Shown here: in pieces, positions 505 through 59,867 of the stretch
Layout of the letters: the number at the start of each line of letters is the position of its first letter
How positions within the stretch are numbered: position 1 is the first letter of the stretch
Assembly: GCA_963762565.1 (NCBI GenBank)
Contig: CAVXLD010000001.1
Coordinates: forward strand, 576,001-640,000
DNA: 64,000 nucleotides
Direction of reading: 5' to 3'
Source of the DNA: an uncultured Verrucomicrobiae bacterium
GTDB taxonomy: Bacteria > Verrucomicrobiota > Verrucomicrobiia > Chthoniobacterales > JAFAMB01
Notes under the pieces: model-generated
The model's input: only the letters and a program-made list of their open reading frames with translations
Told to the model about the DNA's origin: nothing
The model's database searches: none
Position numbers and translations under genes: made by a program

Positions 505-3414
505 TTACCAAAGCGATAGCAGGAATCCTTGGCCCCGTGACTCGCTGCCTTTTTGTCTGCAATATTCCGCGTGGGTTCCTTTTGCGCGTGTTTCCAGTGA
601 AATCGAGTTCTGCTGATACGCGGTGCGGATAGCTTCGTGGAAAGAAGCCTCAATTTCGGCCTCGTCAGCGCCCTTAGCGGTGAGAAACACTGCCTTGAGC
701 CGATGCAGTTCAGCACACCACCAGCGCTCCTCAGAAGTTTCAACGACTGCTTGTGCCTCTCTGATCGCCTCGAGAGCTTCGGACGTCCGGCCGGCGAAGT
801 GGAAAGCTTCGGCCTTGAGCGCTAAGAAATAGGGCACGGCCCAAATCGATCCGATTGCGCGCCAGTCGGCCAATCCTTTCTCGATCCATGAGAGGCCCTC
901 TGGCGGGTTACCAGAAGCGCTGCGGGCCCAGCCCCGAAAAATCTCTCCTCCGGCCAGCCAAAGCGCAAAACTCTGACGGGTTGACAGTTCGACCAAATCG
1001 GCAGCATGGGCTTCCACTTCAGCAGGCTTATGCTCAAGGTGACAGAGGATTGCTGCATACCATAGTACCACGGCTAATCCATGCGTATCATTCAGTTCTT
1101 TTGCCAGCAAGATGGCTTCCGCCATTTTCGCTTGGCAAAAAGAGAGCTCTCCTAGATGCCACTCGGCTACCGCCTCACAGGAAAGACAAATAACCTCAGG
1201 CGTGCTGATCTCTTCGATCGAAAACTGTACGCCTACCGAGCGCCAGATCTGAACCCCTTCGCTCGCATATCGTCGCGCAGCCTCGAAATCGCCCAAAAAA
1301 AAGAGCGTGACGCTCAACTGTCGATAAGCTCGAATCATTAACGCGGAGTTATTCTGCTCCTGTGCCAACGAATAAGCTCGTTTGGCAATCTGCAGTGTTG
1401 TGGTGAACTTTTCGGTGACGCAGGAATAGCGCCATTGACCTTCGAGTGCAAAAATCAGGGCTAAAGGCCGGTTAAGCGAATGACATAGAGCCTCCGCGCG
1501 CTCATAACAAATTCGCGCCTCCGGCGCTGCGAATCCTCGCGTGTGTATCAGATATCGCCCCGCCTCCATAAGGATAAAGAGCTGATCTTCCGCGGTGAGA
1601 CTTTGCCCGGCGGCACTCACTTCCGCCAGTGATCCCCAGCGCTCCTTTTCAAAGAAATGGGCCAATGCCGAGAGCAATGCTCCTCTCAGCCCAAGAACGT
1701 TGGAAGCGAAGGAGGCATTTCCCCGCTGAATCCGGGGAATATAGACTTCATGGAGCGCCTTTCGAAACAGACCGGCGTTGCATCCACAGATCACCGCTAA
1801 GAAAAGCGGCTCCATCTCCCTAAAACTATCCGGCAGCTCAGGCGCAAGGGTTTGATAATAATTGTAAAGCCGCTTATTGCATTCCTGCCAGGCATCGGGG
1901 TTTTGATCCCGGAGTTGCCCGCCGAAATATTCACGAACGAGAGGATGCGTGTCTAGATGTCCACGATAATGCGGATCTTCGCCGGCCAGAAGCCTTGCTC
2001 TCCTTAACTTGGCAAGAATCCTTCTCCACTCGGTTGGGCTCAAACTCGTTAACGACTCAGTAAGGCCGGAGATCGCAGGCGGCTTCAGCAGTGCGCTCAG
2101 CGCCTTCTCGTCGGCAGGTCGATCAAATAGACCTAACATCCGCAGAACTGACATTTCAGGACCCTCGCCAAGCCAGCTCTGATAAGATGCCATGACCTTT
2201 CGGGCGTGGACTCCCTGGCGTACGTCGTCGACCAGACGCGCTGATACTTCTTCCCGACACCGAAGATCTCCGTCATAAGCGTCGGTCAGATAGCTGCCCA
2301 ACAGCGTTAAGGCGAGACAGTGGCCGGCGAATTCGTCACTGGTCGTTTGCAGCTCCGCCTCATGCCCTTTAACCCCCAATGCTCGGAGCAGCTTCGCACC
2401 GGCATCGCTGGATAATTGCTCCAATTCTAATCTTAGAGCTGAGGCACCCTCATGGTCCGCAATATCAGCGATTGGCGTTCGGGTGGTGATCAGGCAAAGC
2501 CCTGTGTTGAAAGCGGCGAGCTCGCGCAGAAGCGCCTGCAACGAAGGATCGCGTAACCGTCCTTCCTGTGGGCCAGGCGGGTTTTGCAGCGGCTCCAGGC
2601 CGTCCAGAACCATTAAAGTTCGACGATGCGCTATCAGTTTGGCTAATCGTTCGCCCTTTTCCCAGCCCGTTCCGATCCGCGGATCTGGATCGCCAAACCA
2701 ACTTAGAGCGGTGTCTAGGAATTGATCTGCAGACGGAGCCTCCCCACTCGTGCCCTGTCTGTAAAAGGACCAGCCGAAGACAAGCTCCGCAGCGCGATAA
2801 TGTTCGGTAGCCAGGCTTCGGAGCCAGTGGTTGATGAGCGTCGATTTACCGACACCGCCCCAGGCGACAATTGTGACGATGTTAACCTGCTGATTCGCCA
2901 ATGCAGCGTCCAGGAAAGATATGTCCTCTGTTCGCCCAAAAACATCGCTTCCGGTAATTGGCAGTCTGGCTATGGAAATCTTTTCGGGTCCCAGCGTTTT
3001 TGCCGGCCTGCGAGACGATTCAGTCACCAGCAACCTTCTAACACGCTCAGCTAGTGTACCCAGATGCTTTTCCAAAGGCGGAGCGGTTGCGTCTAGCCAT
3101 TGAACGGTGTCCAGGAAATAACTCAGATTTTGGTCCGGCGAAACATTCTTGATTCGGAAAGGGATGACTGCCAGGCCGGAAGAGAAAGCTTTAGCCACTT
3201 CTCGCTGAACATGATCGGAATCATCGGAATGCTCCGAGAAGACCAGAACGAACACTCGACAGGCTTCAAGAGCCTGTATGATTCCTTTTGTCCAAGACGT
3301 TCCTGGTTCGATATCACGGGGAGCGATCCAACATTTGATACCCGCGGACTCGAGATGGGCACAAATCGCGTCCGCAGTCGCCCGATCTTTACTCGAATGA
3401 CTGATGAAGACCAT
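505..3414 (-). CDS. TIR domain + STAND/NB-ARC-like NTPase + TPR-like C-terminus (NLR-like protein, ~969 aa)
   Basis: Start re-assigned to ATG 3414 (MVFISHSSKD...CWIAPRDI...HVQREV = TIR_2). Walker A GGVGKS, Walker B MVLDGLE, GHCLAL (GxPLAL-like), HPLVREY, helical repeats ending WWCAELHRLK. Confidence 0.85.
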   Translation of the reverse strand: MVFISHSSKDRATADAICAHLESAGIKCWIAPRDIEPGTSWTKGIIQALEACRVFVLVFSEHSDDSDHVQREVAKAFSSGLAVIPFRIKNVSPDQNLSYFLDTVQWLDATAPPLEKHLGTLAERVRRLLVTESSRRPAKTLGPEKISIARLPITGSDVFGRTEDISFLDAALANQQVNIVTIVAWGGVGKSTLINHWLRSLATEHYRAAELVFGWSFYRQGTSGEAPSADQFLDTALSWFGDPDPRIGTGWEKGERLAKLIAHRRTLMVLDGLEPLQNPPGPQEGRLRDPSLQALLRELAAFNTGLCLITTRTPIADIADHEGASALRLELEQLSSDAGAKLLRALGVKGHEAELQTTSDEFAGHCLALTLLGSYLTDAYDGDLRCREEVSARLVDDVRQGVHARKVMASYQSWLGEGPEMSVLRMLGLFDRPADEKALSALLKPPAISGLTESLTSLSPTEWRRILAKLRRARLLAGEDPHYRGHLDTHPLVREYFGGQLRDQNPDAWQECNKRLYNYYQTLAPELPDSFREMEPLFLAVICGCNAGLFRKALHEVYIPRIQRGNASFASNVLGLRGALLSALAHFFEKERWGSLAEVSAAGQSLTAEDQLFILMEAGRYLIHTRGFAAPEARICYERAEALCHSLNRPLALIFALEGQWRYSCVTEKFTTTLQIAKRAYSLAQEQNNSALMIRAYRQLSVTLFFLGDFEAARRYASEGVQIWRSVGVQFSIEEISTPEVICLSCEAVAEWHLGELSFCQAKMAEAILLAKELNDTHGLAVVLWYAAILCHLEHKPAEVEAHAADLVELSTRQSFALWLAGGEIFRGWARSASGNPPEGLSWIEKGLADWRAIGSIWAVPYFLALKAEAFHFAGRTSEALEAIREAQAVVETSEERWWCAELHRLKAVFLTAKGADEAEIEASFHEAIRTAYQQNSISLETRAKGTHAEYCRQKGSESRGQGFLLSLW

Positions 3415-3520
3415 CGGCGTATGGTTCCTCTGCGGTAACCTGAACTTTAGCCGATTTGATCGCCGATAGCTTGCAAAAAATCCCGTCGCCGAAGTGACGG
3501 GTAAGACACGCCACACCCCG

Positions 3521-3726
3521 CCCGTCGCCTGGAGGGGAGTTGCTTTGTAGCATGGCAGCTCTGCAGGTTGGAGGGGAGCCGCTTTGTAGTGTGGCAACTC
3601 TGCAGGTCGGCAGCAGGCGGCTCCCGCGAACGGCCCCACGCGTCACCATCGCCCAGCGCACCCTGGAGGGGAGCCGCTTCGTAACGTGGCAGCTCTGCAG
3701 GTCGGCAGCAGGCGGCTCCCGGGAAC
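3521..3726. repeat. REP/REPIN cluster left of the RAYT (three units of TGGAGGGGAGCCGC..GCAGGT[CGGCAGCAGGCGGCTCCCG])
   Basis: Direct repeats near 3530, 3569 and 3664. GGGAGCCGC/GCGGCTCCC form inverted pairs. Confidence 0.8.
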
Positions 3727-42498: not shown

Positions 42499-43536
42499 AT
42501 GAAAAAGATTCCGTTCCCCTCGGTCCTCCTCCTCTTGTTGATGTTCGCGGCCGAAAATCTTCGCGCAGCGACATCGACCACGCTCGCGATCTCAATTCGA
42601 ACTTTATCCAGTCCTTATCAAGTCATGTACAAGGTCGGGGCTGAAGCGTACGCCAAACAGGTCGGTCTCCCGCTTGATGTCTTGACCACGGAAGCCAATA
42701 GCCAAAAAGGATTGACCGACATTAAAGCCGAAGTCGCCCGCACCGGAGCCAATCTGGCTTTTTACATTGATCCGAACGACGCGGCAGATGCAGTTCCGAT
42801 CGCGAAGACGCTGGATGCGGCCGGCGTTTATTTCGTCACTTGGTGGAGTAAACCCGCGGACGTAAAGGTTTGGGATTATCCGCATTGGATTGCGCATATC
42901 TCATTCGACGGCGTTGCCGCAGGGACTTACACGGCGACGGAGCTCTTCAAGACGTTTAAAACACCAGGGCAAGGCAAGATTATCGCTTTACAAGGACGCC
43001 TCGGCGACACGCCGAATGCCGAACGTTGGCAAGGTCTGCAACAGGTGCTTGCGCAAAACCCGGGAGTGAAATTGCTGCAGTGGGAATCTGCCATGTGGGA
43101 CCGAACAAAAGCTTATAACAGCACGAAAGCCATGTTGGTGGCTCACCCCGATATCGATGGGATTTGGACAGCGAATGACGACATGGCGATGGGCGCCATT
43201 CAAGCGCTCAAAGAGGCGAATTTAGCAGGCAAGGTTCTGGTTACAGGTTGCGACGGGATCCCGGAAATGTTCGATGCGATCAAGAGTGGCCTTGCGGCAG
43301 CGACGATTTTTAACGATGGCAAGTATCAAGCCGAATTAGGCCTCGCGATGTCTTTAGCGGCTAAACAAGGGAAACTCGACGTGAAATCGTTGCCGCATGA
43401 CCGCCGGCAATTCGAAATTCCGGCCGTTAATGTGAATCGCGAAAATGTAAATCAGGTGGTGCACGACTATATTGAGAACACCCCGACTTACGACCTCAGC
43501 GACTTTTTCGCGAAGTGGTCAAAAGCGATTCCTTGA
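42499..43536 (+). CDS. Sugar ABC transporter substrate-binding protein (RbsB-like)
   Basis: Signal peptide, ER..G, WDR, ANDDMAMGA, TGCDG. Confidence 0.88.
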   Translation: MKKIPFPSVLLLLLMFAAENLRAATSTTLAISIRTLSSPYQVMYKVGAEAYAKQVGLPLDVLTTEANSQKGLTDIKAEVARTGANLAFYIDPNDAADAVPIAKTLDAAGVYFVTWWSKPADVKVWDYPHWIAHISFDGVAAGTYTATELFKTFKTPGQGKIIALQGRLGDTPNAERWQGLQQVLAQNPGVKLLQWESAMWDRTKAYNSTKAMLVAHPDIDGIWTANDDMAMGAIQALKEANLAGKVLVTGCDGIPEMFDAIKSGLAAATIFNDGKYQAELGLAMSLAAKQGKLDVKSLPHDRRQFEIPAVNVNRENVNQVVHDYIENTPTYDLSDFFAKWSKAIP

Positions 43537-43576
43537 GACAATTGAGGGGAAGAACAAAAGAAAGAGCCAACCGCAG

Positions 43577-44581
43577 ATGTACGCAGATGCTACCGCTAGC
43601 CCGGCGTCTTCGGTCAAGAAGGTGCAACAATGGTTGCGGCGAAGCGGAATCAGTGGCCAGTTATTTTGCCTGGTCTTGATAATGGCCATCTTCGGCATTG
43701 GCACTGGTGGCAAATATCTTTCCTGGGCAAATCTGCAGGTGATCCTCAGCCTGGCCGCTATCCCGGCTATCATTGCGGTCGGGGTACATCAGGTTGTCAT
43801 TCTGGGGGGAATCGATCTTTCCGTGGAAGGAGTGGTGGCGCTATGCGTCGTCGTCGTGGGAACGCTGGAGCAGAATCAATTCAACTCGAACAACGTCGGT
43901 CTTTGGATTATCCCGATCACCCTAATTCTCGGTGGCCTGGCGGGCACCGTGAACGGCCTGCTGAACACGAAATTGAAAATACCGTCTTTCATTGGGACGC
44001 TCGGCATGAGCTGGGTCCTTTGGGGGCTGGCGGTATTCGCGAGCAAAGGCCAAACGATTCCCTTGGTCGACAGTCCCCTGAGCGGCATGGTTAATGGCTC
44101 GTTGTTCGGGATTCCAGATCTGGCGCTAGTGGCGTTGGTGCTCGTCATCATCGTGCAGACGATTGAAGATCGGACCCGGTTTGGGCGTTATCTTTATGCC
44201 ATTGGCGGGGACGAAGTTCTTTCCGGACAGGCTGGTGTCAAAGTCGCTACCACCAAGATCATGGTGTTTGCGCTGGCCGGAATGTTCTACGGTCTGTCGG
44301 CGCTGTTTCTGGTGGTGAAACTCAACAGCGCTCAGGCTATCACTGGCAACAATCTGCTTTTTCCCGCGATCACGGCGGTGGCGGTAGGCGGAGTCGCGTT
44401 GACCGGTGGAATCGGCGGCGCCAAGAACGCAGCTCTCGGCGCCCTAATTGTAACCGCGCTAAACGACGGATTAATCCTTCTCGACGTGAATCCCTACGCG
44501 CAAGAAGCAGTCAACGGAGTTGTCCTGGTGATCGCCGTGGCGTTGACCATCGATCGGAAAAAGCTGGGCTTTATCAAGTAA
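43577..44581 (+). CDS. Sugar ABC transporter permease
   Basis: GGIDLSV, KIPSFIGTLG, T.FGR.LYAIGG, AVAVGG..L.GG.G; start uncertain. Confidence 0.88.
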   Translation: MYADATASPASSVKKVQQWLRRSGISGQLFCLVLIMAIFGIGTGGKYLSWANLQVILSLAAIPAIIAVGVHQVVILGGIDLSVEGVVALCVVVVGTLEQNQFNSNNVGLWIIPITLILGGLAGTVNGLLNTKLKIPSFIGTLGMSWVLWGLAVFASKGQTIPLVDSPLSGMVNGSLFGIPDLALVALVLVIIVQTIEDRTRFGRYLYAIGGDEVLSGQAGVKVATTKIMVFALAGMFYGLSALFLVVKLNSAQAITGNNLLFPAITAVAVGGVALTGGIGGAKNAALGALIVTALNDGLILLDVNPYAQEAVNGVVLVIAVALTIDRKKLGFIK

Positions 44582-44593
44582 CACAGTCCGATC

Positions 44594-46138
44594 ATGCAGG
44601 AAGGACCCAAACAATTAGACCCCAACGATCTCGTTCTTGAATTACGCCGGATTACAAAATCGTATCCCGGGGTAATTGCGCTGGATGGAGTTGATTTAAG
44701 CATCTATCACCACGAACTGGTCGGGCTCGTCGGCGAGAATGGCGCCGGTAAATCGACTCTGATGAAGATCCTGATCGGCGTAGTGCAGCCAGATGAAGGC
44801 TCTTATAAGATCCGAGGAAAGGTGGTCAGATTAAAAGATGCAAGTCATGCCATTCGCCTCGGCGTAGGTATGGTCTTTCAAGAGGGTTCTCTGATTCCGA
44901 ACCTCTCGATCATGGAGAATTTGTTTCTCTGCCATGAGACCGAGTTTCAAAAGTTCGGAGTTCTGTCGAAGCGAGCGATGCGCCAAGCCGCCCTGGCTGC
45001 GCTAGCCCCGGTTAAAGTAACGGACGACCTGGATCAGCCGATTTCAGAGACCACGCCTGCGACCCGGCAGATGGTGGAGATCGCCCGTCTGCTTTGGCTC
45101 TCCCGGTTATACGGGCAAAAAAATCCCGTGCTTATTTTGGACGAACCGACCACGGTTCTGACCGACCAGGAGCGCGAAACTCTGTTCACGATCCTGCATG
45201 AGATCACGAATCAAGCTTCCATCATTCTCATCTCTCATCGGTTACAGGAAATCGTAGAGAACTCGGACCGGATTGTGATTCTGAAAGACGGCAAGAATGT
45301 AACCGAGTTCAGCTCCGCCAACGCCAGGATCCCTGAGATCGAGAACTTGATGGTGGGACACACTTTCTCGGAGGACCGCTACCGGGAGAGCGAACAAATC
45401 GAGCCGGGGACACAGATAGTTCTCAAGGTGGAGAAGCTTAGTAGAAAGGGGAAATTTCAACCCATCGATTTCGTGGTGAAAGCGGGCGAGATCCTGAGTT
45501 TGGTGGGACTGGTCGGCTCAGGCAAAGAAGAGTTATGCCGATGTATTACCGGATTAGACAAACCGGATACCGGTTCAGTTAGCATTAAAGGGAAACGATT
45601 TACACCAGGTTTTCCGAGCGAAGCGGTTCGTCTCGGAATCGGTCACGTCCCAATTGATCGGCGAAACGACGGGCTGGCATTAGGGATGAGCATTGCCCAG
45701 AATGTGAACTTGCTGGTGTTGGAAGAGCTCAAGACTGGAGGCTTTGTCAACCCGCTGCGAGAAAGACAGAACGCCTTAAGGTGGATCAACGAATGTAGGA
45801 TTAAATGCCCCTCCCCAGCGACCGTGTGCGGAAACTTGAGCGGGGGTAACCAACAAAAAGCGGTGATCGCCAAGTGGCTGACATCCCAAGTTCAGTTGCT
45901 GGTACTCGACCATCCAACGCGGGGCGTCGACGTGGGAGCGAAAGCAGAGATCTATCGACTGATTCGCAAACTCGCGGATGACGGCCTCGGAATGATCACT
46001 ATGTGCGATACGTTAGAAGAAGATATCGGCCTCTGCAGTCGAATGCTGATCATGAAAGATGGCCGGTTAGTCCGCGAAATTAACTGCCCCTCCTTCCAAA
46101 AACCTACCCCAAGCGAAATTATTAGTTCGATCGTGTAA
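44594..46138 (+). CDS. Sugar ABC transporter ATP-binding protein (two NBDs, RbsA-like)
   Basis: GENGAGKST, ILDEPT, SHRL, LSGGNQQK, PTRGVDVGAK. Confidence 0.92.
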   Translation: MQEGPKQLDPNDLVLELRRITKSYPGVIALDGVDLSIYHHELVGLVGENGAGKSTLMKILIGVVQPDEGSYKIRGKVVRLKDASHAIRLGVGMVFQEGSLIPNLSIMENLFLCHETEFQKFGVLSKRAMRQAALAALAPVKVTDDLDQPISETTPATRQMVEIARLLWLSRLYGQKNPVLILDEPTTVLTDQERETLFTILHEITNQASIILISHRLQEIVENSDRIVILKDGKNVTEFSSANARIPEIENLMVGHTFSEDRYRESEQIEPGTQIVLKVEKLSRKGKFQPIDFVVKAGEILSLVGLVGSGKEELCRCITGLDKPDTGSVSIKGKRFTPGFPSEAVRLGIGHVPIDRRNDGLALGMSIAQNVNLLVLEELKTGGFVNPLRERQNALRWINECRIKCPSPATVCGNLSGGNQQKAVIAKWLTSQVQLLVLDHPTRGVDVGAKAEIYRLIRKLADDGLGMITMCDTLEEDIGLCSRMLIMKDGRLVREINCPSFQKPTPSEIISSIV

Positions 46139-46151
46139 CCGCGAAAACTTT

Positions 46152-46404
46152 CCAACCGCAGATGAACGCAGATTTACGCAGATAAAGATTAAAGCATTAA
46201 CCGCGAATGGACACGAATGAACGCGAATATGCAGGGCGCTAAAGCAGTAACGGATTCATCTGCCGTTTGCTTTTTCTTTGCTTCCAAATCGCAGCCTGTC
46301 CGACGAAGCATCAGCTCCGCGATCTCGTTAGTTCCACACGTCGCGACGTCGGATGCATTCGCGGTTGATTCTTCCGTCTCTTATCTGCGTTCATCTGCGG
46401 TTGG
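46152..46404. repeat. Nested inverted-repeat element inside the sugar ABC operon
   Basis: Outer CCAACCGCAGATGAACGCAGAT / ATCTGCGTTCATCTGCGGTTGG; inner AACCGCGAATG / CATTCGCGGTT. Confidence 0.8.
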
Positions 46405-46422
46405 CTTGATTCTTTTGTCTGA

Positions 46423-47442
46423 GTGATGCAGAAGAAAATGATTGAGGTGCAAAGGCAAGAACCAGGTGGGATAGCAGGCACATCTCGAACTGCTGGCGCT
46501 CGACGTAAGCGGGCCCGGGTTCCGGCGATTTATTTTTCGCTCGGGTTGTTGTTACTGCTGGTCGTGGTTTTCACTATCGGCAATGGGAATTTTATTTCCC
46601 CCTACAATCTCAATACCATTGCCAGTTACAGCGCGATTCTGTTGATGGTTGGTCTCGGCCAAATGAACCCGATTTTGATCGGGGGAATTGATCTCGCCGT
46701 GGGTGGTCTGATCTCGTTCATTTCGGTGATCTTTATTACCTTGTTGAAGATAATCGGACCCTGGGCGTTTCCCATCTGCTTGGTCATCGCCGTGGCGTTC
46801 GGATTCGTGAACGGCAATATTCTTACCCGGATCAAAATCCCCTCTTTTATTGCTACCCTTGGCACCGGAGGAATCCTCACCAGTCTGGCCCTTTTGATTT
46901 CGCCTTTGCCAGTCGACCTACCGCCCGCTGATTACGGGTTGTTGGGACTGGTTAATGGAAACATTCTGGGAGTGCCGAACCTGCTGCTACTGATGGTAGC
47001 CGGTTTCTTGTTTTTCTATCTGGTTCTGCGGTTCACCGTGTCCGGCCGCAGAATTTACTACACCGGCAGCAACATCAAGATGTCTTGGATGTCAGGAATC
47101 GACATCGTTAAAACGCGTAACCTGGCTTTCGCACTTTCGGGTCTGGGAGCAGGGATTGCTGCTATCATGTTATCTTGTACGCAGTTCGGCGGCGACCCGA
47201 CCTCGGGCAATGTCTATATCCTGCAATCCATCGCCGCGGTCGTGGTGGGTGGGACCGCCCTGACCGGCGGCACCGGCGGACCGATTAATACGGTCATTGG
47301 AACCTTGATTCTCGCGGTCATGGAAAACGGGATGAACGTGATCGGAGTAGACGCCTACTTCCAGCAGAGCATTCTGGGGCTCGTCATCATCATCAGTGTG
47401 GCCCTAACCTTCGACCGTAGTAAAACGGCGACGATTAAGTAA
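46423..47442 (+). CDS. Second sugar ABC transporter permease
   Basis: GGIDLAVG, KIPSFIATLG, SIAAVVVGGTAL.GG.G. Confidence 0.9.
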   Translation: MMQKKMIEVQRQEPGGIAGTSRTAGARRKRARVPAIYFSLGLLLLLVVVFTIGNGNFISPYNLNTIASYSAILLMVGLGQMNPILIGGIDLAVGGLISFISVIFITLLKIIGPWAFPICLVIAVAFGFVNGNILTRIKIPSFIATLGTGGILTSLALLISPLPVDLPPADYGLLGLVNGNILGVPNLLLLMVAGFLFFYLVLRFTVSGRRIYYTGSNIKMSWMSGIDIVKTRNLAFALSGLGAGIAAIMLSCTQFGGDPTSGNVYILQSIAAVVVGGTALTGGTGGPINTVIGTLILAVMENGMNVIGVDAYFQQSILGLVIIISVALTFDRSKTATIK

Positions 47443-47462
47443 CGAAAAGATCACAACGACGG

Positions 47463-47628
47463 GAATAGCCGCCAAAAGGCTAGAGCCTCGCGCAGAGGAC
47501 GCAAAGGACGCTACGAAAAGCAAGGAGGGAATGTGGGTTCTCCTGCCTTTCGTTGCGTCCTTTGCGTCCTCTGCGCGAGGTTTACTTCTCTTTCCTTTGC
47601 AATCTTTGCGCCTTTTTTGCGGCTATTC
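47463..47628. repeat. Nested inverted-repeat element between convergent genes
   Basis: Outer GAATAGCCGC / GCGGCTATTC; inner CCTCGCGCAGAGGACGCAAAGGACGC / GCGTCCTTTGCGTCCTCTGCGCGAGG. Confidence 0.8.
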
Positions 47629-47715
47629 TGTCCTGGCTCTGCTTTTGGACTCCAGGTTACTGGCTCCTCTCCCGCTATCCCCCTCGAATTCTCCGACTTC
47701 GCAAAGCCGCAAAAA

Positions 47716-50700
47716 TCACTCCTTGATGAAATCGAAGATGCCGGCTCGGGAACCTATCCGTTTGCCTGTGCCGCGATTGCCCTTGAATTGGGCGGCTATA
47801 TCATAACTATACGGCGTTCCCGGCCGTGCGTTGTTCATACTGTACTGCTGTGGCCCCGTGGTACCGGCGAGATGTAAGATAGCGTTCCCATCCGGTTTTA
47901 TTTCCCCCCTGATTTGGAAGTGGCTGTGAACGTTGTACTCCGCGTATAGAACTCCGTTCTTAATCGTAGCTGCAAAATTAATGTGATAGCCCTTCGCAAC
48001 CGCACCGGTAACAGGATCTTTGTAATCGGACGTTTCCATTGTGACTGACCACAGGCCATCGAAATTGCCGGTTGCCCGCTGCTCAGTTGGGGTTGCGACG
48101 GGGCGACTTGGAGTTGGCGCCACTAACGCTAGTTTCCGCGAAGGTGTTGGCGTCGCGACACGAGTGGAGTTGGCTGTGGGGGTGGCAACCACTAAGGGAC
48201 TCGGCGTGGAGATGGGGCTGGGAGCCGAAGTTGTGGTCGCAACCGAAGGAGTCGGCATCGCGACTACGAGTGGAGTGGTTGTCGGGGGTAGCGACAACCA
48301 CGGGACTCGGCGACGGTGCTGTCGGAGCAGGGGTCGGAGTGGCAAGCGCCACCGGCGGCGGAGCTTCGGGAGCGATCGGCGATGGTGTTGCCGTCAGAAC
48401 CAAAGGAGCCTGGGTTTCAGGTGTGGTCGGTCGAGGACCTAAAAAGCGAATCGCGCCGGCAATCCCGAGCGCCACAAGGAAGAGGGCCCCAACGATCGTC
48501 CAAATGAGCACCCTTCGTTTTGGACGGGGCGCAGCAACCGGCGCCGGAGAAAGCTGGACGGCAGACGGCTCCGCGGATGCTGATACCGAATTGGTGGTTG
48601 GTCGGGCCGGTGTAGCGATGCTGTCATTCAGCGCATTCCAGAACTCCTGGCAGGTGCGATACTTGCCGTCGCGGCCGACGCACGCGAGTCGCAGGATCTC
48701 ATTACTGGCCTGATCCAGGACAGGCAAAGGCGTATAGGTTTGCGCATCGATTCTCCGAGCCGGGGCCCGGCCCCCGAGCAGTTCGTACACCAGCCTACCA
48801 TAAAGACGCACTGCTTTGGTCCCCTGGATCCCCGCCTCTGCCTGCGTCATAGAAAGAACTCGGCTGGCAGGAACGATGGTCTGACGATCCCAGCCGTTCC
48901 GGCTCCGGAACAGCAACGGAGCTACACTCAAAGGGTTCAGTTTCAAATGGCATTTACTCAATCCTTCGGCGTCACCCTTGGCTACAGCCTCAAACCCCTC
49001 GCCTTCGACCGGGCAGACGACCAAGATTTTTCGAACACTGACATCCACCAGCCCCAGCCCTTGACCAGCAACGAAATCGAGGGTCTCGGCCAATGGGTTA
49101 AGTAGGGCTCGCAGCTCAACCGGCTTTAACGACTGCCGCCATCGGAGGAGGTCGTAGAGCCCAAAGCCATGGACCCATTCACGCACAATGCAGGGGCCCT
49201 GCGAGGAGCGCTCCAGCCGGTAATAACGAATTAGATGCGGGTGCGTGCCTTGTTGGATCACGCCCAGCTCGTTCTCCACCAAATCAAGCAGCGCCGGGTC
49301 GGCGGCGATGCCCGGATGCAACAGTTTAATGCCCACTTCCGAGGGTTGATTGCTTGTGTTCTGCTCATCCATCGCCCGAAAAAGGCGCCCTCCGTTTCCC
49401 TCCCGCTCCTCCGACATCAGCCGATACCGGTCAGCCAGCAGGGTTCCCGTCTGCACCGCCAGGTAATTATCAAACAACGGCGAAGCCAGGGGTGCTCGGG
49501 CAATTGGTTCCAGATCCTCTTTTTGTTTCTCGCCGGGCAAAGCCTCCTTCTCGGCTTCGCTAACCACGGATCGCGAGGACGCGATCCCTCCCGGGGTTAT
49601 GATCCGTTCAGGCACGGCTCCGAACTCGGCTGAAAGCCGAGTCGCCGCTGCCTCAATCGCCTCTTGCAGTTCCGCAGGCGTTTGGAACCGGTCATTCGGA
49701 CTCTTTTCCAGCATCCGGCGAAGCACTGAAATCACCGGTTCCGGTACCTGAGTCAATTGATCGAACGGCGGAGGTTTGATCATCTGTGCGACCATCACTT
49801 CTCCGACTGAGCCGGAGAAAGGCCGCTTCCCGCTGAGCAGATACCAAAGCGTTACCCCAAGAGAGTAGATATCAGATCGGACATCGAGTTTTTTCGCTTC
49901 GCATTGCTCCGGGCTGGCAAACGCTGGGCTACCGACGAAGTCCTGGGTTCGAGTGATTTTCGCGGCATCCAAGGTGTCCGCTCCTGCGCCTTTGGCGAGA
50001 CCGAAATCAATGAGTTTAACGTCCAGAGAGCCTGACCGGTTCGCGATCGCCATGATATTGGACGGTTTGATGTCTCGGTGAATCAGCTCATGGGCCTGGG
50101 CCGCTTCCAAGGCTTGAGCAACTTGCAACGCCACTCGGAGCGCGGTCGCCGGTGAGACGGGACCATGCCCGGCGATATAACGTTCCAGATCTTCACCCTC
50201 GACAAACTCCATGGCGTAGAAGTAGGCATCTTGCTCTTCCCCGAATTGAAAGATGGTCGCGACATGGGGGTGATGAATTAAGGCGGCGGCTTGGGCTTCT
50301 CGCAGAAACCGATGTTTGGCTTGCCGGCTTTGCAATAGCTCGCCTGCGATCACCTTCAGCGCGACCGGCCGATTCAGCACTGTGTCGATCGCCTTGTAGG
50401 TAACACCCATACCGCCCTTGCCCAGCCGGAACAGGGACCCATCCGGGTGGCGCAGGATCCGGAAATGCGCAAACGTTTCTGGAGTCGCCTCCTCTGCCTC
50501 CTCGTCTTCGGGTTGCCTTGAAGAGTCCTTTAGTAATGCGCGCGCATGTTGGAGCAGAGTCGGGAAATGTTGGGAAGGGGGCAGAGGCCGAAAGCCGTCG
50601 ACCCATTGGTCAGCTCCCAGAAAATAGGCTAGATCGTCCGCGGGTGCGATCGGTTCGACTCGGAACGTTAACAGATGGTTCTGGCAATGAGCCGCCCGTT

Positions 50701-50977
50701 CCACCTCTCGCAACACATGCTTGGAGCGATTGGATGCCTGGGTTAGGACGAGAAGCAAGATGCGAGCCTCGCGAATTGCCTGGGTGATTTGCCCGGAGTA
50801 AGGGCGACCACCTTGTACATCACGGGGCGCAATCCAACAACGGACATCGCCGGCTTCGAACGACGCGCAGATGGCATCAGCGATAACCTGGTTTTCGCTG
50901 GCATAAGAAATAAAAACCGTATGTGGCCATCTGCCTATGTTCGCTGGACGCGCCAACGGCGTATTCGCTTCGCTCAT
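47716..50977 (-). CDS. TIR - Ser/Thr kinase - pseudokinase - TM - Pro/Thr linker - extracellular domain (one +1 frameshift at 48284-48288)
   Basis: TIR (VFISYAS..CWIAPRDV..HVLREV); kinase (LGKGGMG, VALK, HRDIKPSN, DFG, SPE); second kinase-like fold lacking HRD/DFG; TM VLIWTIVGALFLVALGIAGAI. Removing one base of the G5 run joins ORF 47716-48345. Confidence 0.82.
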
Positions 50978-51123
50978 GAATCGAAGTCTTTGTTAATAGA
51001 CGACAGAACAGAACGCGCTTGCGTTGAAAGATGTTCAGCCTCTGGCTCATGAGGTTAGCGACTAGGCCCAAAAGATTCAATATCTTACACCACTCGATCC
51101 ACGGCTGTAACCGGGTGATAACG

Positions 51124-51225
51124 GAGGCCGATGAGGGGTCGCCACCCGTGGAGCGCTGCCTCGCTTGCGAGGCCGATGAGGGGTCGCCAACCGTGAGAGC
51201 ACTGCCTCGCTTGCGAGGCCGATGG
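51124..51225 (+). repeat. Tandem ~45-bp units containing the GTGG REP
   Basis: GAGGCCGATGAGGGGTCGCCA.CCGTG..GC.CTGCCTCGCTTGC repeated. Confidence 0.8.
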
Positions 51226-51278
51226 TGATCAGAGAGACTTTGTCGCCTTCCGGGATCTTAGGGATTGTTTTCCATGCC

Positions 51279-51298
51279 GTGACACGCTACCGTGTCAC
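51279..51298. promoter_or_regulatory. Palindromic operator upstream of the TA pair
   Basis: GTGACACG-CTAC-CGTGTCAC, perfect 8-bp arms. Confidence 0.6.
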
Positions 51299-51303
51299 AC
51301 ATC

Positions 51304-51627
51304 ATGGATGTTAAAAAAGACACACCGAAAAGGCGGCTCCGCATGCCAAAGACATCGGTAGGCAGCACGAATCTCAAGGCCGTGAAATCGGTCAGCATTC
51401 GGGCGCTTCGAACGGATTGGCGCCGCGTGAAAGCCATGGTCACGCGAGGAGCGAAGGTTGTGGTTACCGACAATGGGGTCCCCATCATGCAACTTGTTCC
51501 ACTCGAGCAGCCTGTCGGCGCCGAAATCGATTGGCTCGCACACCTGGAGAAGATCCGAGCAATCGCGGGAGGCAAAACCACAGGTGGAAACGCTGTCTTG
51601 GAGGAGAGAGCGTCTTATAAGTCGTGA
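51304..51627 (+). CDS. Phd/YefM-family antitoxin
   Basis: VSIRALR......V..G..VVVTDNGVPI.QLVP; stop overlaps the toxin start; start uncertain. Confidence 0.75.
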   Translation: MDVKKDTPKRRLRMPKTSVGSTNLKAVKSVSIRALRTDWRRVKAMVTRGAKVVVTDNGVPIMQLVPLEQPVGAEIDWLAHLEKIRAIAGGKTTGGNAVLEERASYKS

Positions 51628-52064
51628 CCTACTTCGATACAAGTGTTCTGGTAGCCTTTTACGCAAACGAAAGGTCCGCGCTGGAAGCAGCGAGGTCCCT
51701 GGCTGGCAGCCACCATCCGGCGCCATTTAATCGTATCTTGGAGCTCGAGCTCCGAAATGCGATCCGGCGCAAGGTTCCCAGGAGGGAAGCGACACCCACT
51801 CAAGTCCGCGGTTTTCTACGCCAGTTAGTTTCTGATTTGACTCAAGGAATTCTCGCGTGGCAGGTATTCGACTTCGACCGAGTATTTGATCGGGCTGAGA
51901 CCCTTGGCACCCGATTCACCGAGCAGCTCGACACTCGCTCATTCGATATACTTCATGTCTCGATTGCAATCGAGACCGGCTGTGACGCGTTTCATACTTT
52001 TGACCACGACCAGAGACGACTCGCTGCCGCCGCTGGCCTCACCACCAATCCGATTACTCGGTAG
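51624..52064 (+). CDS. vapC: VapC-family PIN toxin
   Basis: YFDTSVLV, ELE..NA, RSFDILHV, F.TFD..Q..LA...GL. Confidence 0.85.
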   Translation: MTYFDTSVLVAFYANERSALEAARSLAGSHHPAPFNRILELELRNAIRRKVPRREATPTQVRGFLRQLVSDLTQGILAWQVFDFDRVFDRAETLGTRFTEQLDTRSFDILHVSIAIETGCDAFHTFDHDQRRLAAAAGLTTNPITR

Positions 52065-54736: not shown

Positions 54737-57161
54737 TCATTCGCGTAGCGCCGTGATCGGGTTGACGCGCGCGGCTCGAAGCGCGGGGATAAGGCATGCC
54801 ACTATGCCGGACAGGCCTAAAACCAGGATCGTTACGCCGAGCGTCATCGGATCAAGTGGACTGACTCCGTAAAGTAGGTTTGCGATGGCACGTGCAAAAC
54901 CTGCTGCACCAACTATACCAATTATCATGCCAAGGCCGATGAGCTTGACGCCGCGGAGAACCACCCAGTTTAAATGTTCATCTGATCAGCGCCCAGCGCC
55001 ATGCGGACACCGATCTCTTTCGTTTGCCGAGCAACATAACCGGCTAGAAGGGCATAAATGCCGACTACCGATAGCGATAAGGCCACAGCGGAAAAGCTGC
55101 CGGCAACCGTTAACTCCATCTTCCGGGTTACGAATTTACCTGCCAGCGTTTGGTCGAATGTCGTTAGCTGACCAATAGGGACATCTGGGTCGACCAAAGC
55201 CATTGCTTTTTTAAGCTGAGGTAGCAGGCGACTGGGATCGGCCTTAGAGCGCAAAAGCAGTTGTTCGGCGTACGCCGGGTCCTGCGTGTACGGGTAGTAT
55301 TCCTGAAATGGGGTATCACTATAGTCAGCCGTGTTCTGTCGCACGTGCGGTACAACTCCGACGATGGTAAAGATTGTGACCCCTCTCCCATCCGCTGTAG
55401 GAGAGCTAATTTGCTTTCCCAACGGGTCCATACCGGGGAAATAGCGATCAACCAGAGCCTGATCGACGATGATCACTTTCTGGCGATCCGACTTATCGTT
55501 CGCGTTGAAGTCCCGTCCTCGTAAGATCGGTATACCCATGGTCTGGAAATAACCCGGCGAAATCCGATAGGTATTGAATTTAGCGGTATGGGCGGGATCT
55601 GGTTCTGTTTGTCCGGTGACCCAGAACGGCGAAGACCAGCCATTACTACTTAAGAACGGAGGTCTGTCGTTCAACGCTGCGTCAGTGATCTCAGGAATTT
55701 GCCGCGTCTCCTCCAGCAGTCTGTCGAAGAAAAGGCGCATCCGACCTAGATCTGCGGTATAGTTGCGGTTGGTTAGTATAATCGGGACTGAGATAAGCCG
55801 GTTTAGATCGAACCCCGTGGGAGTATTCGCAACTGCTTGAAAACTGGAGATGAGCAGCCCTACTCCAAAGAGCAGGACAAATGCTAGCGCAACTTGGGCG
55901 ACCACCAACCAGGAATGCATTTGTTGCTGCGGCTTAGAAGCTCCACCACTATGGCCCTTTGGCAGCGATGCCAGGTTGATGCTAGACAGGTTCCACGCCG
56001 GCAATAATCCCGCCAGCACCGCAACCAAAACCGTGAGGCCAAGTACAAAGAGGAGCGCCGTCACGACCTAGATGAGCCTCTTGAAAACGATACAGATCTT
56101 GCGGACTTAAGCTTTTTATTACGCTCAAGGCCCACGAGCCTAGAACCATTCCGAAGAGCGCGCCGGCCGTTGTGAGAACGGTCGTTTCTATGAGCACCTC
56201 ACTAATAAGCCGGCGACGAGATGCGCCGACCGAAGCTTTGATGACCATCTCGCGTCGCCGCTCAAGTGATCTAGTAAACAGGAGGCAGCCCACGTTTACG
56301 CTCGATATCGCAAGCAGACCGACCGCAGCTGCAGCGAGCAGCCAAATAGTCGAATGATAGTCACTCCGTCATTGCATCCAACAACGGAACAATCCGAAGT
56401 ACGTATCCCTGCTCCGTTACAGGGTATCGACTGGCCACTTGCGAGTAGATACGACCCAAGTCTGCCTCTGCTTGAGCCGCATTGATTCCGTCTTTTAACC
56501 TACCAAAACAATCTATCCAGTGGGAGCTTCGATCCCACAGGTTAAGATTCAAAGTAGTTACTAAATTGTTAATGGGCGCATAGGCATCGATTGGAGGAGG
56601 TCCCCAATCATCGACTTGAGATTGCGAAACGCCGATGATCCGAAAGCTCTGACCGCTAAGCACGATACTTTTGCCAATAACGCCGGGATCCGAGTTAAAA
56701 CGCTTTCGCCAAAATTGTTCGCTCAGCACAATCAATAACGGACCGTTCGGAATATCCTCTTCTTCCGTGAACGATCTCCCAAGAATCAAAGGACGGCCCG
56801 TGACGCGAAATATTCCGGGTGACGCAAAGTCCACGTTGACGCGCGTGGAATAATCCCCTTCGCGCCAATCAAGCCAGTCGCCTCCATCACTAACGCACAA
56901 AGTATCGAAACTCCGTTGATCAGCAGCGAGGTCAATAAAATCAGGATAGTCGAAATTCGTTCGGCCACTGTTGGGAGCCCGCAGCACCACTTTGACCAAT
57001 CGATTCGGGTCGGGATATGGCAAAGGCTTGAGCAGAACTCCATCGATCAGACTGAAAACCGCGGTATTAGCGCCAATACCGAAGGCCAGGATTACGATCG
57101 CGGTGATGGTGAACGCTGGGGACTTAAGTAGGATGCGGAGCGTGTGGCGAAGCCCGAGCAT
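54737..57161 (-). CDS. ADOP-like permease, array 2, split by three frameshifts (~56360, ~56065, ~54965)
   Basis: ORFs 56361-57161, 55982-56293, 54970-56064 and 54737-54964 are collinear parts of one paralog. Confidence 0.8.
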
Positions 57162-57410: not shown

Positions 57411-59867
57411 TCATTCGCGAAGCGCAGTGATCGGGTTAATGCGCACGGCTCGTAGTGCAGGCAACAGGCAGGCCAAGACTGTGGCTATTCCAAGAACGAA
57501 CACCGCCAGGGAAAGCGCCAGGGGATCACTAGCGGAGACATTATAAAGGGCGCTCTCGAAGAATCGGACCAGGAGCAAAGCGGACATTAGTCCGATCGCT
57601 AACCCGAGTCCCGCTAACTTCAGGCCTCTCAGGATCACGAGCCTTAGGATATTGGACGATTGAGCTCCAAGAGCGATACGAACCCCTAGCTCACGTCTCC
57701 GTTGGCTGACAGAATAGGCGAGTACACCGTACAGACCCACTGCAGAGAGGCAGAGCGCAGCGCCGGAGATAATGCTGACTAAGAAAGCGCTGAATCGCCT
57801 GGTGGCTGACCGTCCAGCAATCAAGTCATCGAATTTTTGGATTCGATCCGCCGGAACATCCGGATCGATGGAAGCCACAATCTTTTGAATAGCGGGAGCC
57901 AGGGTGGCCGGCTCTCGATCGGTACGTAAAAGCAGGAATGCACGATACAGATTGTCACGTTGGCTATACGGGAAATAAGCTTGATAGGGTGCCAAGCTGT
58001 GATCAGGGGCATTGTGTCTGACTTGTCCGACCACACCAACAATCGTCCACGTCTTCTGGTCGTCACGCGTCGCCCAGAGATCTTCTATTTGCTTTCCGAT
58101 CGGATCTCCGCCTGGGAAAAACCGTTGTGCTAGAGCTACATCAACGATGACAACATGTTGGGTGTCTGCCCGATCGTCGGCGTCAAAATCGCGCCCGGCA
58201 ACGATCGGAATCTGCATGGTTTTGAAATAGTCCGGAGAAATATCTTGGGAGCAGAGACGTTGGCTCTTTACCGGGCTCCGTAACTGGCTGACCTGGAATG
58301 TGAAACGGTGCGTTCAAGTCACCGAACGTCCATTCAAAGGGTTGTTCTTGATTCATGGCGGCATCAGTCACTCCCGGAAGTTCCTTCGCCTTCTCGAGAA
58401 CGGCAGCAAACAGACGCCGGATTTGAGGCATATCGTTATATTTCTTACCGGTAGGATTGATGTTCGCGCTAACGAGATGATCCGGCGTTGAATCCAAGGG
58501 GGATTTCCTGGAAAACCTGGAAGCTACGGACTAACAACCCGGCTCCGATCAATAGTACACAAGCGGCCGCTACTTGACCGGTCACCAGGATAGATTGAGT
58601 GCGTTGCCGGTGCAGCCCGGTGGTGCCACCCCGATTACCTTCTTCTCGGAGGACCGTTTCCAAATTGATCTTCGAAAGACTGAGTCCAGGAAGTAATCCC
58701 GGACAACAAGGTGACAAAGGCGGTGATTAAGAAAATGAAAATTAGAGATGCGCTATCTAAATGGACGTCTTGAAATCGGTTCAGGTAATCCGGGCTTAAC
58801 CACTTAATCAATCCAATCGACCAAAACGCAATAATACAGCCGGTGACACCGCCTAACATCGAAAGGAATGCGGTCTCCAATAACAGTTTTCTAACCAGAC
58901 GAAAACGCGAGGCGCCTAAGGTCGAACGAATTGTCATTTCTTTGCGGCGTTCCAATCCGCGAGCAAAAATCAAGTTCGCCACATTGGCGCAAGAAATGAG
59001 CAAGAGGCATCCAACAGCCCCTCCTAGTAACCAGACCGTCGCTGAATAAGTGGCGGCTGTGCTGTCAAAGAGTGAAGCCACCCGAATAATGTAGTTCTTG
59101 TCGGCGTCAGGATACCGGGCATCGAGGTTGCTTTGAATGATGTTCAAGTCGGCGTTGGTCTGTGCCGGAGTTGCAGCCTGCTGCAAGCGTCCGAAACAGA
59201 GCAGACCGTGCGACGCCCGTTTGTTCGTCCATGGACCTCCAAAGTACTCCGATACATGGATTGGCACATACACAGCGTCGTCCGAAGGAGTGCTGACATC
59301 TTCGACCTGTCTTGGGCAAACCCCAACTACCTGGAAGCTTTCCCCGCTTAGAATGATGTTTTGACCGATGACATTTGCATCGGCATTAAAGTGATCCCGC
59401 CAGAGCGCCTCGCTGAGCACAGCGACCATGGGGCCGCCGGTTTTATCTTCGGCCTCAGTAAATGGGCGGCCTAATACGAACGGCAAATTCGTGACCTTGA
59501 ACAGGCTGGGCGACGCATAGATCGCGGTCAGCCGTTGCGGAAGCTGACGAGTCCCCAAATCTAGATAATCCCAGTACTCCACCGCGATGTTACTCAAGGT
59601 CTTCTGATCATCGCGAAGATCCAGATAATCCGGGTAACTTACCCCACCCCAATCCGACCGGTCCAACACAGAGTTGCTTGTTCTCGATTCAAAGATCTGC
59701 ATCAGCCGATCCGCTTGAGGAAACGGTAATGGATTTAGCAACACGGTACTAATCAGGCTGAAAACGGCGGTGTTCGTCCCGATACCGAAGCCGAGGATTA
59801 GTACCGCGGTGATGGTGAAGCCGGGCGACTTTAGCAGGAGGCGGAGGGTGTGGCGCAGGGGGGACAC
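57411..59867 (-). CDS. ADOP-like permease, array 2, split by three frameshifts (~58700, ~58490, ~58255)
   Basis: ORFs 58635-59867, 58469-58717, 58183-58497 and 57411-58217 are collinear. Confidence 0.8.

Follow-up and report, generated by a model that had tools for sequence, protein, structure and literature searches.

We analysed a stretch of 64,000 nucleotides (the window) from contig CAVXLD010000001.1 of an uncultured Verrucomicrobiae bacterium, covering positions 576,001 to 640,000 of its forward strand, and concentrated on the minus-strand interval 47716-50977. This interval is one gene, split in the assembly by one extra C. In this soil bacterium it probably encodes a type I membrane receptor kinase (N-terminus inside, C-terminus outside) that carries a TIR output domain and a β-barrel sensor and serves in signal transduction at the cell surface. 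Within this signal-transduction reading, immunity is one possible purpose. The features of the gene, in order from the N-terminus of the product, are as follows.

47716..50977, minus strand: whole gene, about 1086 codons plus stop when one C of the run is ignored
50591..50917, minus strand: TIR_2 domain (PF13676), residues 21-129; Pfam, E 1.9e-16, 61.1 bits against a cut-off of 28
50705-50707, minus strand: conserved Glu E91 of the TIR domain (in HVLREV); profile alignment to solved TIRs
49673..50428, minus strand: Hanks-type Ser/Thr kinase, residues 184-435; Pkinase, E 7.2e-52, 176.8 bits against a cut-off of 31.7
48608..49435, minus strand: predicted pseudokinase domain, residues about 515-790; sequence plus AlphaFold2 and Foldseek
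48455..48511, minus strand: single transmembrane helix, residues 823-841; Kyte-Doolittle with a 19-residue window, sole segment above 1.6, peak 2.46
48091..48454, minus strand: stalk rich in Pro, Thr, Ala, Val and Ser, holding the frameshift; composition
48284..48288, minus strand: run of five C (G5 on the plus strand) at which the reading frame breaks; one base more than in intact relatives
47719..48090, minus strand: ectodomain of 124 residues, modelled as an eight-stranded β-barrel; AlphaFold2, predicted local distance difference test score (pLDDT) 90.6
47716-47718, minus strand: stop codon

One gene interrupted by a single base

In the assembly the locus appears as two overlapping minus-strand open reading frames (ORFs) in different frames, 48083..50977 (964 residues) and 47716..48345 (209 residues). 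The last 66 residues of the long ORF form a tail that resembles no other part of the protein, and the start of the short ORF is rich in Pro and Thr, as a continuation of the stalk encoded by the long ORF. When one C is removed from the run the two are joined and read ...SPVVVATP-TTTPLVVAMPTPS.... A protein encoded on a 34.5-kb metagenome contig (P0003, 1074 residues, 97% identical) is an intact single ORF. The long ORF corresponds to residues 1-888 of P0003 and the short ORF to residues 888-1074, with the junction exactly at the run, where P0003 reads ...VVVATP/TTTPLVV... (the slash marks the junction). The two frames are 97% and 92% identical to P0003 and neither contains a stop codon. Single ORFs were also found for the orthologs in another genome of the same genus (G033, 1067 residues) and in another genus of the family (G007, 1203 residues as called, with an upstream start).

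Three different studies supplied soil-metagenome runs whose contigs were aligned to the window as well. The contigs of runs X5 and X6 have one base fewer at 48284 and those of X1 have one fewer at 48282; run X2 shows no such deletion, but has little or no depth over that stretch. The remaining stalk indels in X5 and X6 add up to multiples of three. An earlier account made from the sequence alone (the sequence-only reading) had flagged an indel at 48284-48288 and treated the ectodomain as part of the same protein. The ORFs of P0003, G033 and G007 and the contigs of soil runs X1, X5 and X6 bear out the one-base excess, and the three intact relatives carry the ectodomain fused to the rest.

If the extra C were real, the source genome would hold a true pseudogene that yields a sensor-less protein of 964 residues or nothing. 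We consider this rather unlikely. The assembly itself does read C5, more genes of the window are split (the MacB/FtsX-type permease genes at 54737-57161 and 57411-59867), and a TIR-transmembrane-TPR gene elsewhere in the genome (L022) is broken into two overlapping frames. However, both frames of the receptor gene are clean apart from the one base, each of the three soil runs that have a contig there is one base short, and several split genes within 64 kb suit an indel-prone assembly at least as well as independent decay events. Because of the intact relatives, the soil contigs that are one base short and the other split genes nearby, an assembly indel is likelier than real decay, and the frameshift most probably reflects either an error in the assembly or a lesion that this strain acquired very recently.

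Two other explanations were rejected. Two separate genes, for a kinase and a small secreted protein, do not fit, since the intact relatives fuse both exactly at the run and the short ORF lacks a signal peptide. Programmed frameshifting does not fit because the relatives need no shift; to our knowledge ACC-CCC-GAC is not a recognised +1 shift context, and a run of five is short for switching by phase variation.

Domains of the receptor

The TIR domain scored 65.2 bits in a genome-wide TIR_2 search. A profile built from nine TIRs of the source genome and orthologs (alignment A3) was compared with solved structures and matched 27 sequences at E 0.01 or better, with TIR-STING (1.6e-7) and Cat1 (6.5e-7) the best. 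In this comparison E91, within SKHVLRE, aligns with the Glu of WCWDE in Cat1, WCHYE in TLR6 and WSKFE in TIR-STING, which we take to be the catalytic residue of those TIRs. Conservation was assessed in a family alignment of the query and its 120 best database matches (121 sequences). The column holds Glu in 95 sequences, Gln in 15, Arg in four and a gap in seven, that is, Glu in 95 of the 114 sequences with a residue there.

In the first kinase the G-loop, the VALK Lys208, the αC Glu227, the HRD Asp302, Asn307, the DFG Asp324 and the SPE Glu357 are kept in 119-120 of the 121 sequences, and judged by these motifs the domain looks active and catalytically competent. Its best NCBIfam match is NF033483 (PknB/Stk1) at 264.6 bits, below the equivalog cut-off of 450, and Pfam scans of the protein returned no PASTA domain. 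PADLOC gave a PD-T4-6 match (E 4.9e-88) to the generic kinase domain only (residues 184-455); for the PD-T4-6 models no curated cut-off exists, and the same score is reached by an unrelated paralog.

The second domain is recognisable by sequence over its N-lobe only, with PK_Tyr_Ser-Thr at E 3.2e-6 (27.1 bits, cut-off 23.1), 21.8 bits against Pkinase, which is below the Pkinase cut-off, and the StkP kinase at 6e-4 among PDB sequences. An AlphaFold2 model based on a 28-row alignment (A1) reached a pLDDT of 84 and a predicted template modelling score (pTM) of 0.82. Foldseek matched this model over both lobes to the kinase domains of PknA, PknB and PknI (E 2.8e-11 to about 1e-9, TM-score 0.6-0.74, about 300 columns), and the pseudokinase domain of Rv3910 was also among the matches. 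The nucleotide-pocket and catalytic positions differ in their fate across the 121 sequences as follows.

β3 Lys551: kept in 121 of 121
αC Glu570: kept in 121 of 121
Gly-rich loop EGxGGRLF: conserved
HRD motif: L-V-D here; Asp in 89, Glu in 16, Asn in 12 of the 121
Catalytic-loop Asn: Lys (K650) in 116 of 121
DFG motif: N-P-L here; Asn (N681) in 116 of the 116 aligned

By the usual definition, applied to these motifs, the second domain is a pseudokinase, and it may still bind nucleotide. In some distant relatives (rows P0156, P0158, P0178, P0180, P0186 and P0230 of alignment A1) an FHA-like segment, seen by eye, follows the pseudokinase-like domain.

The transmembrane helix is preceded on its N-terminal side by RPKRR, which places the N-terminus in the cytoplasm by the positive-inside rule. 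Behind the helix lies the stalk. Pro, Thr, Ala, Val and Ser make up 84% of the corresponding 112 residues in P0003, and 56 of the 112 are Pro or Thr; the length of the stalk differs among strains, as seen in the soil-run contigs. The ectodomain, according to its model, would be an eight-stranded barrel of no named family. Foldseek of the model against the PDB gave nothing at E 0.001 or better (best 2.6e-3). VIA-align gave Z scores of 8.7-9.9 to the barrels of LbpB, TbpB, hemophilin, HphA and PmSLP, and designed and OmpA-type barrels scored nearly as high (Z 8.5-9.0). Neither Pfam (fn3 only, E 0.066, below the cut-off) nor NCBIfam supplied a family name, the ESM Atlas held unnamed clusters only, and a single-sequence word search with the ectodomain returned four short matches.

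These results agree throughout with the sequence-only reading, which had described a single N-in/C-out chain with a TIR (Glu in HVLREV), an intact Hanks kinase and a second kinase fold (HRD changed to LVD, DFG absent) inside, one membrane segment, and a Pro/Thr stalk and small beta-rich domain outside.

A recurrent cassette with exchangeable sensors

The distribution of the architecture was examined with a word-seeded database search using residues 1-880, in which 8000 candidates were scored and 6809 proteins reached E 0.001 or better. Both TIR_2 and Pkinase were present in 111 of the 120 best matches, as read from their Pfam columns, so that the domain-architecture comparison proposed earlier shows the cassette to be recurrent. 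The C-termini of these proteins carry FGE-sulfatase (20), TPR (16), Sel1 (14), a parallel β-helix (8), a polysaccharide deacetylase (1) or a solute-binding domain (1), with nothing recognised in the others. The few named homologs are called 'protein kinase' and belong to Verrucomicrobia or Chthoniobacterales bacteria. A search with the pseudokinase domain returned 188 cluster representatives at E 1e-10 or better, of which 42 reached 1e-30 or better. The pseudokinase match begins near residue 470-510 in the strongest full-length rows; in most of the weaker rows listed it begins near residue 300, behind a kinase with no TIR.

The source genome has three TIR-kinase-pseudokinase paralogs, one with the barrel (the gene described here), one with FGE-sulfatase and one with a transmembrane segment and TPR, and additionally a kinase-pseudokinase-transmembrane-Sel1 protein without TIR. 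Among 43 genomes of the taxonomic family, the source genome (G000) included, a match running from the TIR into the pseudokinase was found in nine, with seven such copies in G007, and a further nine have the TIR-less form only. No match at E 1e-120 or better was obtained from 300 genomes of the phylum outside the family, in a stricter first look that scored about two candidates per genome and also missed a known paralog of the source genome.

Judged by these sequences, the TIR-kinase-pseudokinase cassette is a large unnamed family with interchangeable C-terminal sensors. Since relatives join the same cassette to other sensor modules, the barrel can be regarded as an exchangeable input and the cassette as transducer and output. 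Identity to the G033 and G007 orthologs is 93 and 83% for the TIR, 92 and 85% for the kinase, 86 and 68% for the pseudokinase and 76 and 54% for the barrel. This drop from the inside outward fits a surface-exposed sensor.

The barrel module occurs once in the source genome and in 13 of the 43 family genomes. A profile search for it among longer proteins gave 24 matches, namely six orthologs, one TIR-kinase-TPR protein, ten caspase-like proteins (PF00656), five CsgG/FlgO-like proteins, one nucleotide cyclase and one protein without a Pfam domain (the barrel-fusion proteins of this search are P0268-P0284). Stand-alone copies of the barrel were also seen (loci L012-L018), as open frames of about 160 residues whose N-termini resemble signal peptides.

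Public databases hold hundreds of family members, annotated only as Ser/Thr kinases, and full-text literature searches, which did not extend to supplements, found no published description of a bacterial TIR-kinase-pseudokinase fusion. The design is thus recurrent in databases, yet without a description that we could find in print. Passages of Kaur et al. (2020, PMC7159879), of Toshchakov and Neuwald (2020, PMC7075850) and of PMC11350192 contain no description of it. The words 'TIR' and 'tandem' are absent from the main text of a preprint presenting an atlas of bacterial Ser/Thr kinases (10.1101/2025.01.12.632604), which defines pseudokinase families and whose supplements might place these domains. 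The searches likewise returned no characterisation of the architecture as non-immune, an outcome that would have contradicted the sequence-only reading.

Comparison with known systems

A similar general plan is seen in bacterial receptor kinases of the PknB, PknA and StkP type, which share with our protein an N-terminal cytoplasmic Hanks kinase, one transmembrane helix and an extracytoplasmic sensor. Kinases of this type also supply the best structural matches of the second domain and the best NCBIfam match of the first (NF033483). Unlike them, the receptor described here has no PASTA domains, carries a TIR before and a pseudokinase after the kinase, and ends in an unnamed barrel sensor.

With the TIR NADase defence proteins (ThsB, Cat1, TIR-STING, SpbK) it shares the TIR fold family and the Glu at the catalytic position. 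In contrast to those proteins, its TIR is fused to a kinase-pseudokinase pair and a membrane receptor, has His in place of Trp and lacks an adjoining effector gene, and its NADase activity is putative. As for Thoeris in particular, the best 25 of 37 PADLOC rows for P0003 contain no ThsB model, and the neighbours scanned include no SIR2, SLOG or Macro gene.

The TLR/IL-1R-MyD88-IRAK axis also combines a surface receptor, a cytoplasmic TIR and a coupled kinase and pseudokinase (IRAK2 and IRAK3 are pseudokinases). Here, however, everything lies on one chain, there is no leucine-rich-repeat or immunoglobulin ectodomain and no death domain, and the TIR is far N-terminal and not membrane-proximal. 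The likeness is one of analogy, with no homology beyond the shared domain superfamilies. Plant tandem kinases (WTK1/Yr15, Sr62) and JAKs resemble our protein in having an active and a degenerate kinase in one polypeptide. The plant proteins differ in being soluble and without TIR, and the bacterial pseudokinase is set apart from both groups by keeping its β3 Lys and αC Glu. In JAKs the pseudokinase precedes the kinase, the reverse of the order here, and that comparison is a loose one.

A further match concerns MAD6, the kinase of the methylation-associated defence system MADS (NF047741; PADLOC mad6), in which residues 278-626 of P0003 align to profile positions 300-606 of 612. The N-lobe of the pseudokinase alone matches positions 482-608 of the profile (E 2.4e-6). 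Since the match extends beyond the kinase, MAD6 may share the arrangement of a kinase and a second N-lobe-like domain. The score of 173.7 bits is nevertheless below the cut-off of 460, no MADS genes lie nearby, and a TIR, a membrane helix and an ectodomain are all missing from the MAD6 profile.

The ectodomain model resembles the barrels of the LbpB and TbpB lobes, hemophilin, HphA, HpuA, fHbp and NHBA in its eight strands and similar size (Z 8.3-9.9 over 94-113 residues). Identity to them is 7-14%, Foldseek E-values are 3e-3 or weaker, and the protein here has no handle domain and no lipobox. Because designed and OmpA-type barrels score almost equally, the resemblance to these surface lipoproteins indicates shared topology without establishing kinship.

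Proposed mechanism and alternatives

A working model can be drawn from the domain order. A ligand bound by the barrel would gather receptors, the kinase domains would then autophosphorylate in trans, and the pseudokinase would assist by dimerisation or allosterically. This would bring the N-terminal TIR domains side by side, and the juxtaposed TIRs could cleave NAD+, leading to its depletion or to a signal derived from ADP-ribose, could synthesise a signal nucleotide, or could recruit partners or act purely as scaffolds. We infer each of these elements, from ligand-driven clustering, trans-autophosphorylation and proximity activation of the TIR to NAD+ cleavage and any immune role, from the architecture described above.

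If the model holds, it would be of some general interest. Most of what is known of bacterial TIRs concerns soluble defence proteins, and the Hanks kinases of bacteria are familiar chiefly as receptor kinases that stand alone. A widespread and conserved TIR-kinase fusion with a pseudokinase that retains its nucleotide pocket would represent a new form of TIR control, exerted through phosphorylation and receptor clustering at the membrane. The question is directly testable because the sensor heads are exchangeable; kinase and TIR outputs can both be read in vitro, and forced dimerisation could replace the ligand. With this family, kinase-pseudokinase regulation could also be modelled in bacteria. 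A last point is the ectodomain, which represents a barrel module without a name; the module is found alone, when it is apparently secreted, or in fusion with caspase-like peptidases, with CsgG/FlgO-like proteins and with a nucleotide cyclase.

Several observations weigh against the model. The Trp of WxxxE is not conserved; His87 stands there in our protein and the column holds His in 54, Gln in 40, Glu in nine, Asp in eight and a gap in eight of the 121 sequences, and the competence of the TIR as an NADase is therefore uncertain. The Gln and Arg residues in the Glu column appear to come from a subgroup mostly with FGE-sulfatase, this subgroup being the sequences missed by a motif pattern and the direct look having covered only the paralog of the source genome (L002). 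L002, the FGE-sulfatase paralog, has Gln at the position of the catalytic Glu and shows no membrane helix by eye, so the cassette is neither always a surface receptor nor always catalytic. The HRD Asp of the pseudokinase, kept in 89 of 121 sequences, and its intact Lys-Glu pair make weak or atypical catalysis possible in that domain too. No conserved neighbouring partner gene was found at this locus or at the G033 locus. The gene is also broken in the assembly and, if the extra base is real, its product lacks the sensor. Besides these features of L002, two further points weaken an immune role in particular: the gene lies among transporter genes and not in a defence island, and TIR and kinase heads are interchangeable on ordinary TolB-like/TPR bodies (see below).

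The protein could instead be an ordinary receptor Ser/Thr kinase in which the TIR provides non-catalytic self-association or docking, with phosphorylation as the sole output and the envelope, nutrients or other cells as the object of sensing. We are doubtful of this alternative, although several findings suit it. The kinase is the best conserved catalytic unit, and kinase-pseudokinase proteins without TIR are as common (the only form in nine of the 43 genomes, against nine with the TIR form); most of the weaker rows listed in the pseudokinase search leave no room for a TIR before the kinase. The missing Trp of WxxxE and the Gln or Arg that replaces Glu in part of the family point the same way, and many animal TIRs are pure scaffolds. 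What is hard to square with a pure scaffold is the retention of the Glu in 95 of the 114 TIR-bearing sequences amid free variation nearby.

A more specific proposal is that of an anti-phage or anti-competitor immune receptor, in which the sensor would detect a cue from the invader and the kinase-pseudokinase pair would license the TIR to deplete NAD+ or make a signal nucleotide, ending in abortive infection or growth arrest. The conserved TIR Glu agrees with such a role, as do the use of the same TIR subtype (40% identical) at the head of a TIR-NACHT-TPR STAND protein in the window, the combination of a variable sensor with a constant transducer-effector, which resembles the logic of NLR-type receptors, the expansion to seven paralogous copies in G007, and the fusion of the barrel to caspase-like peptidases in other bacteria (ten of the 24 matches). 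The bacterial TIRs characterised so far act mostly in defence (Thoeris, CBASS, Pycsar, SPARTA, SpbK), and listings in the literature agree. Against these points, the neighbours are genes for a sugar ABC transporter and MacB/FtsX-type permeases, and the ortholog in a second species of the genus keeps its place next to a related permease gene. The sole other defence-like gene among the flanking genes scanned is a PIN toxin, for which, with its partner, there is no room at the G033 locus. The best 25 of 37 PADLOC rows for P0003 name generic kinase models (PD-T4-6, mad6, MkoA) and no TIR model. An extracellular sensor is unusual for phage sensing, and TIR-less siblings are equally common (nine of 43 genomes each). 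On this evidence we consider a dedicated immune receptor unlikely.

A broader generalisation would see in the family the prokaryotic equivalent, on a single chain, of the Toll-like-receptor/IRAK axis. In it, pattern receptors at the surface, or in the cytosol for the paralog that lacks a membrane helix, would use phosphorylation to gate a TIR NADase and would convert envelope threats (phage, predators, competitors) into NAD+-derived signals or NAD+ depletion. This extension of the signal-transduction reading is quite improbable at present.

Genomic neighbourhood and other TIR loci

The receptor gene and a sugar-type ABC transporter operon (42499-47442) are transcribed towards each other. On the upstream side of the receptor gene lie a small ORF and a PIN-domain gene, followed by a MacB/FtsX-type permease gene. 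The small ORF and PIN-domain gene (51292-52064, plus strand) form a VapBC-like pair between the receptor and permease genes. In G033 (locus L019) only about 330 bases lie between the end of the permease gene and the start of the ortholog, too few for the pair, so that the PIN pair has the look of an insertion in the present genome. Genes for a phosphatase, an FHA protein or nucleotide sensing do not adjoin the receptor gene, and a scan of 47400-51350 for promoters and terminators gave counts within shuffled expectation. A search for sequencing runs listed no RNA run. The two broken MacB/FtsX-type permease genes mentioned above lie on the minus strand, each in two or three frame-shifted pieces, and likewise suggest that the assembly is prone to indels or that genes in this region are decaying.

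The source genome has ten TIR_2 loci, three of which are kinase fusions. One of the ten lies in the same window (505-3639, minus strand) and encodes the STAND protein already mentioned, a 1044-residue NLR-like protein of TIR_2-NACHT-TPR type; its TIR is 40% identical to that of the receptor, and PADLOC gave it weak TIR-type matches (SAVED-TIR, ThsB). At each of loci L021-L024, as judged by eye, a hydrophobic stretch lies between an N-terminal-side TIR and a body of TPR, of TolB-like plus TPR, or with a CxxCH-containing domain. Locus L022 (G000:C3:416500-420500) contains its TIR-transmembrane gene, with a TolB-like/TPR body, at 198-2385 on the minus strand as two overlapping ORFs of 356 and 396 residues, which probably reflects one more single-base break in this genome; the gene at L024 is of the same type and apparently unbroken. 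At L026 (G000:C3:845000-853500) a TIR with a canonical SDWVCSE motif is joined to a TolB-like/TPR body, with no helix seen. Two genes from this soluble TIR protein is a kinase-transmembrane-TolB-like-TPR protein. Since both TIR and kinase sit on the same types of receptor body, they appear to be alternative cytoplasmic heads.

A palindromic insertion in the kinase-pseudokinase linker

The linker between the two kinase domains contains one further feature that distinguishes this gene from its relatives.

49556..49587, minus strand: in-frame 27-base insertion in the kinase-pseudokinase linker; absent from G033 and G007, 9-residue gap in P0003
49568-49587, minus strand: hairpin GGATCGCG-AGGA-CGCGATCC within the insertion

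The hairpin has 198 copies in the genome (up to two mismatches), against none for a reversed control. In four soil runs the summed contig depth at the hairpin was about 30-150 times that of its flanks, with hundreds of unrelated contigs contributing. The insertion looks like a REP-like palindromic element that is able to sit in-frame within a coding sequence.

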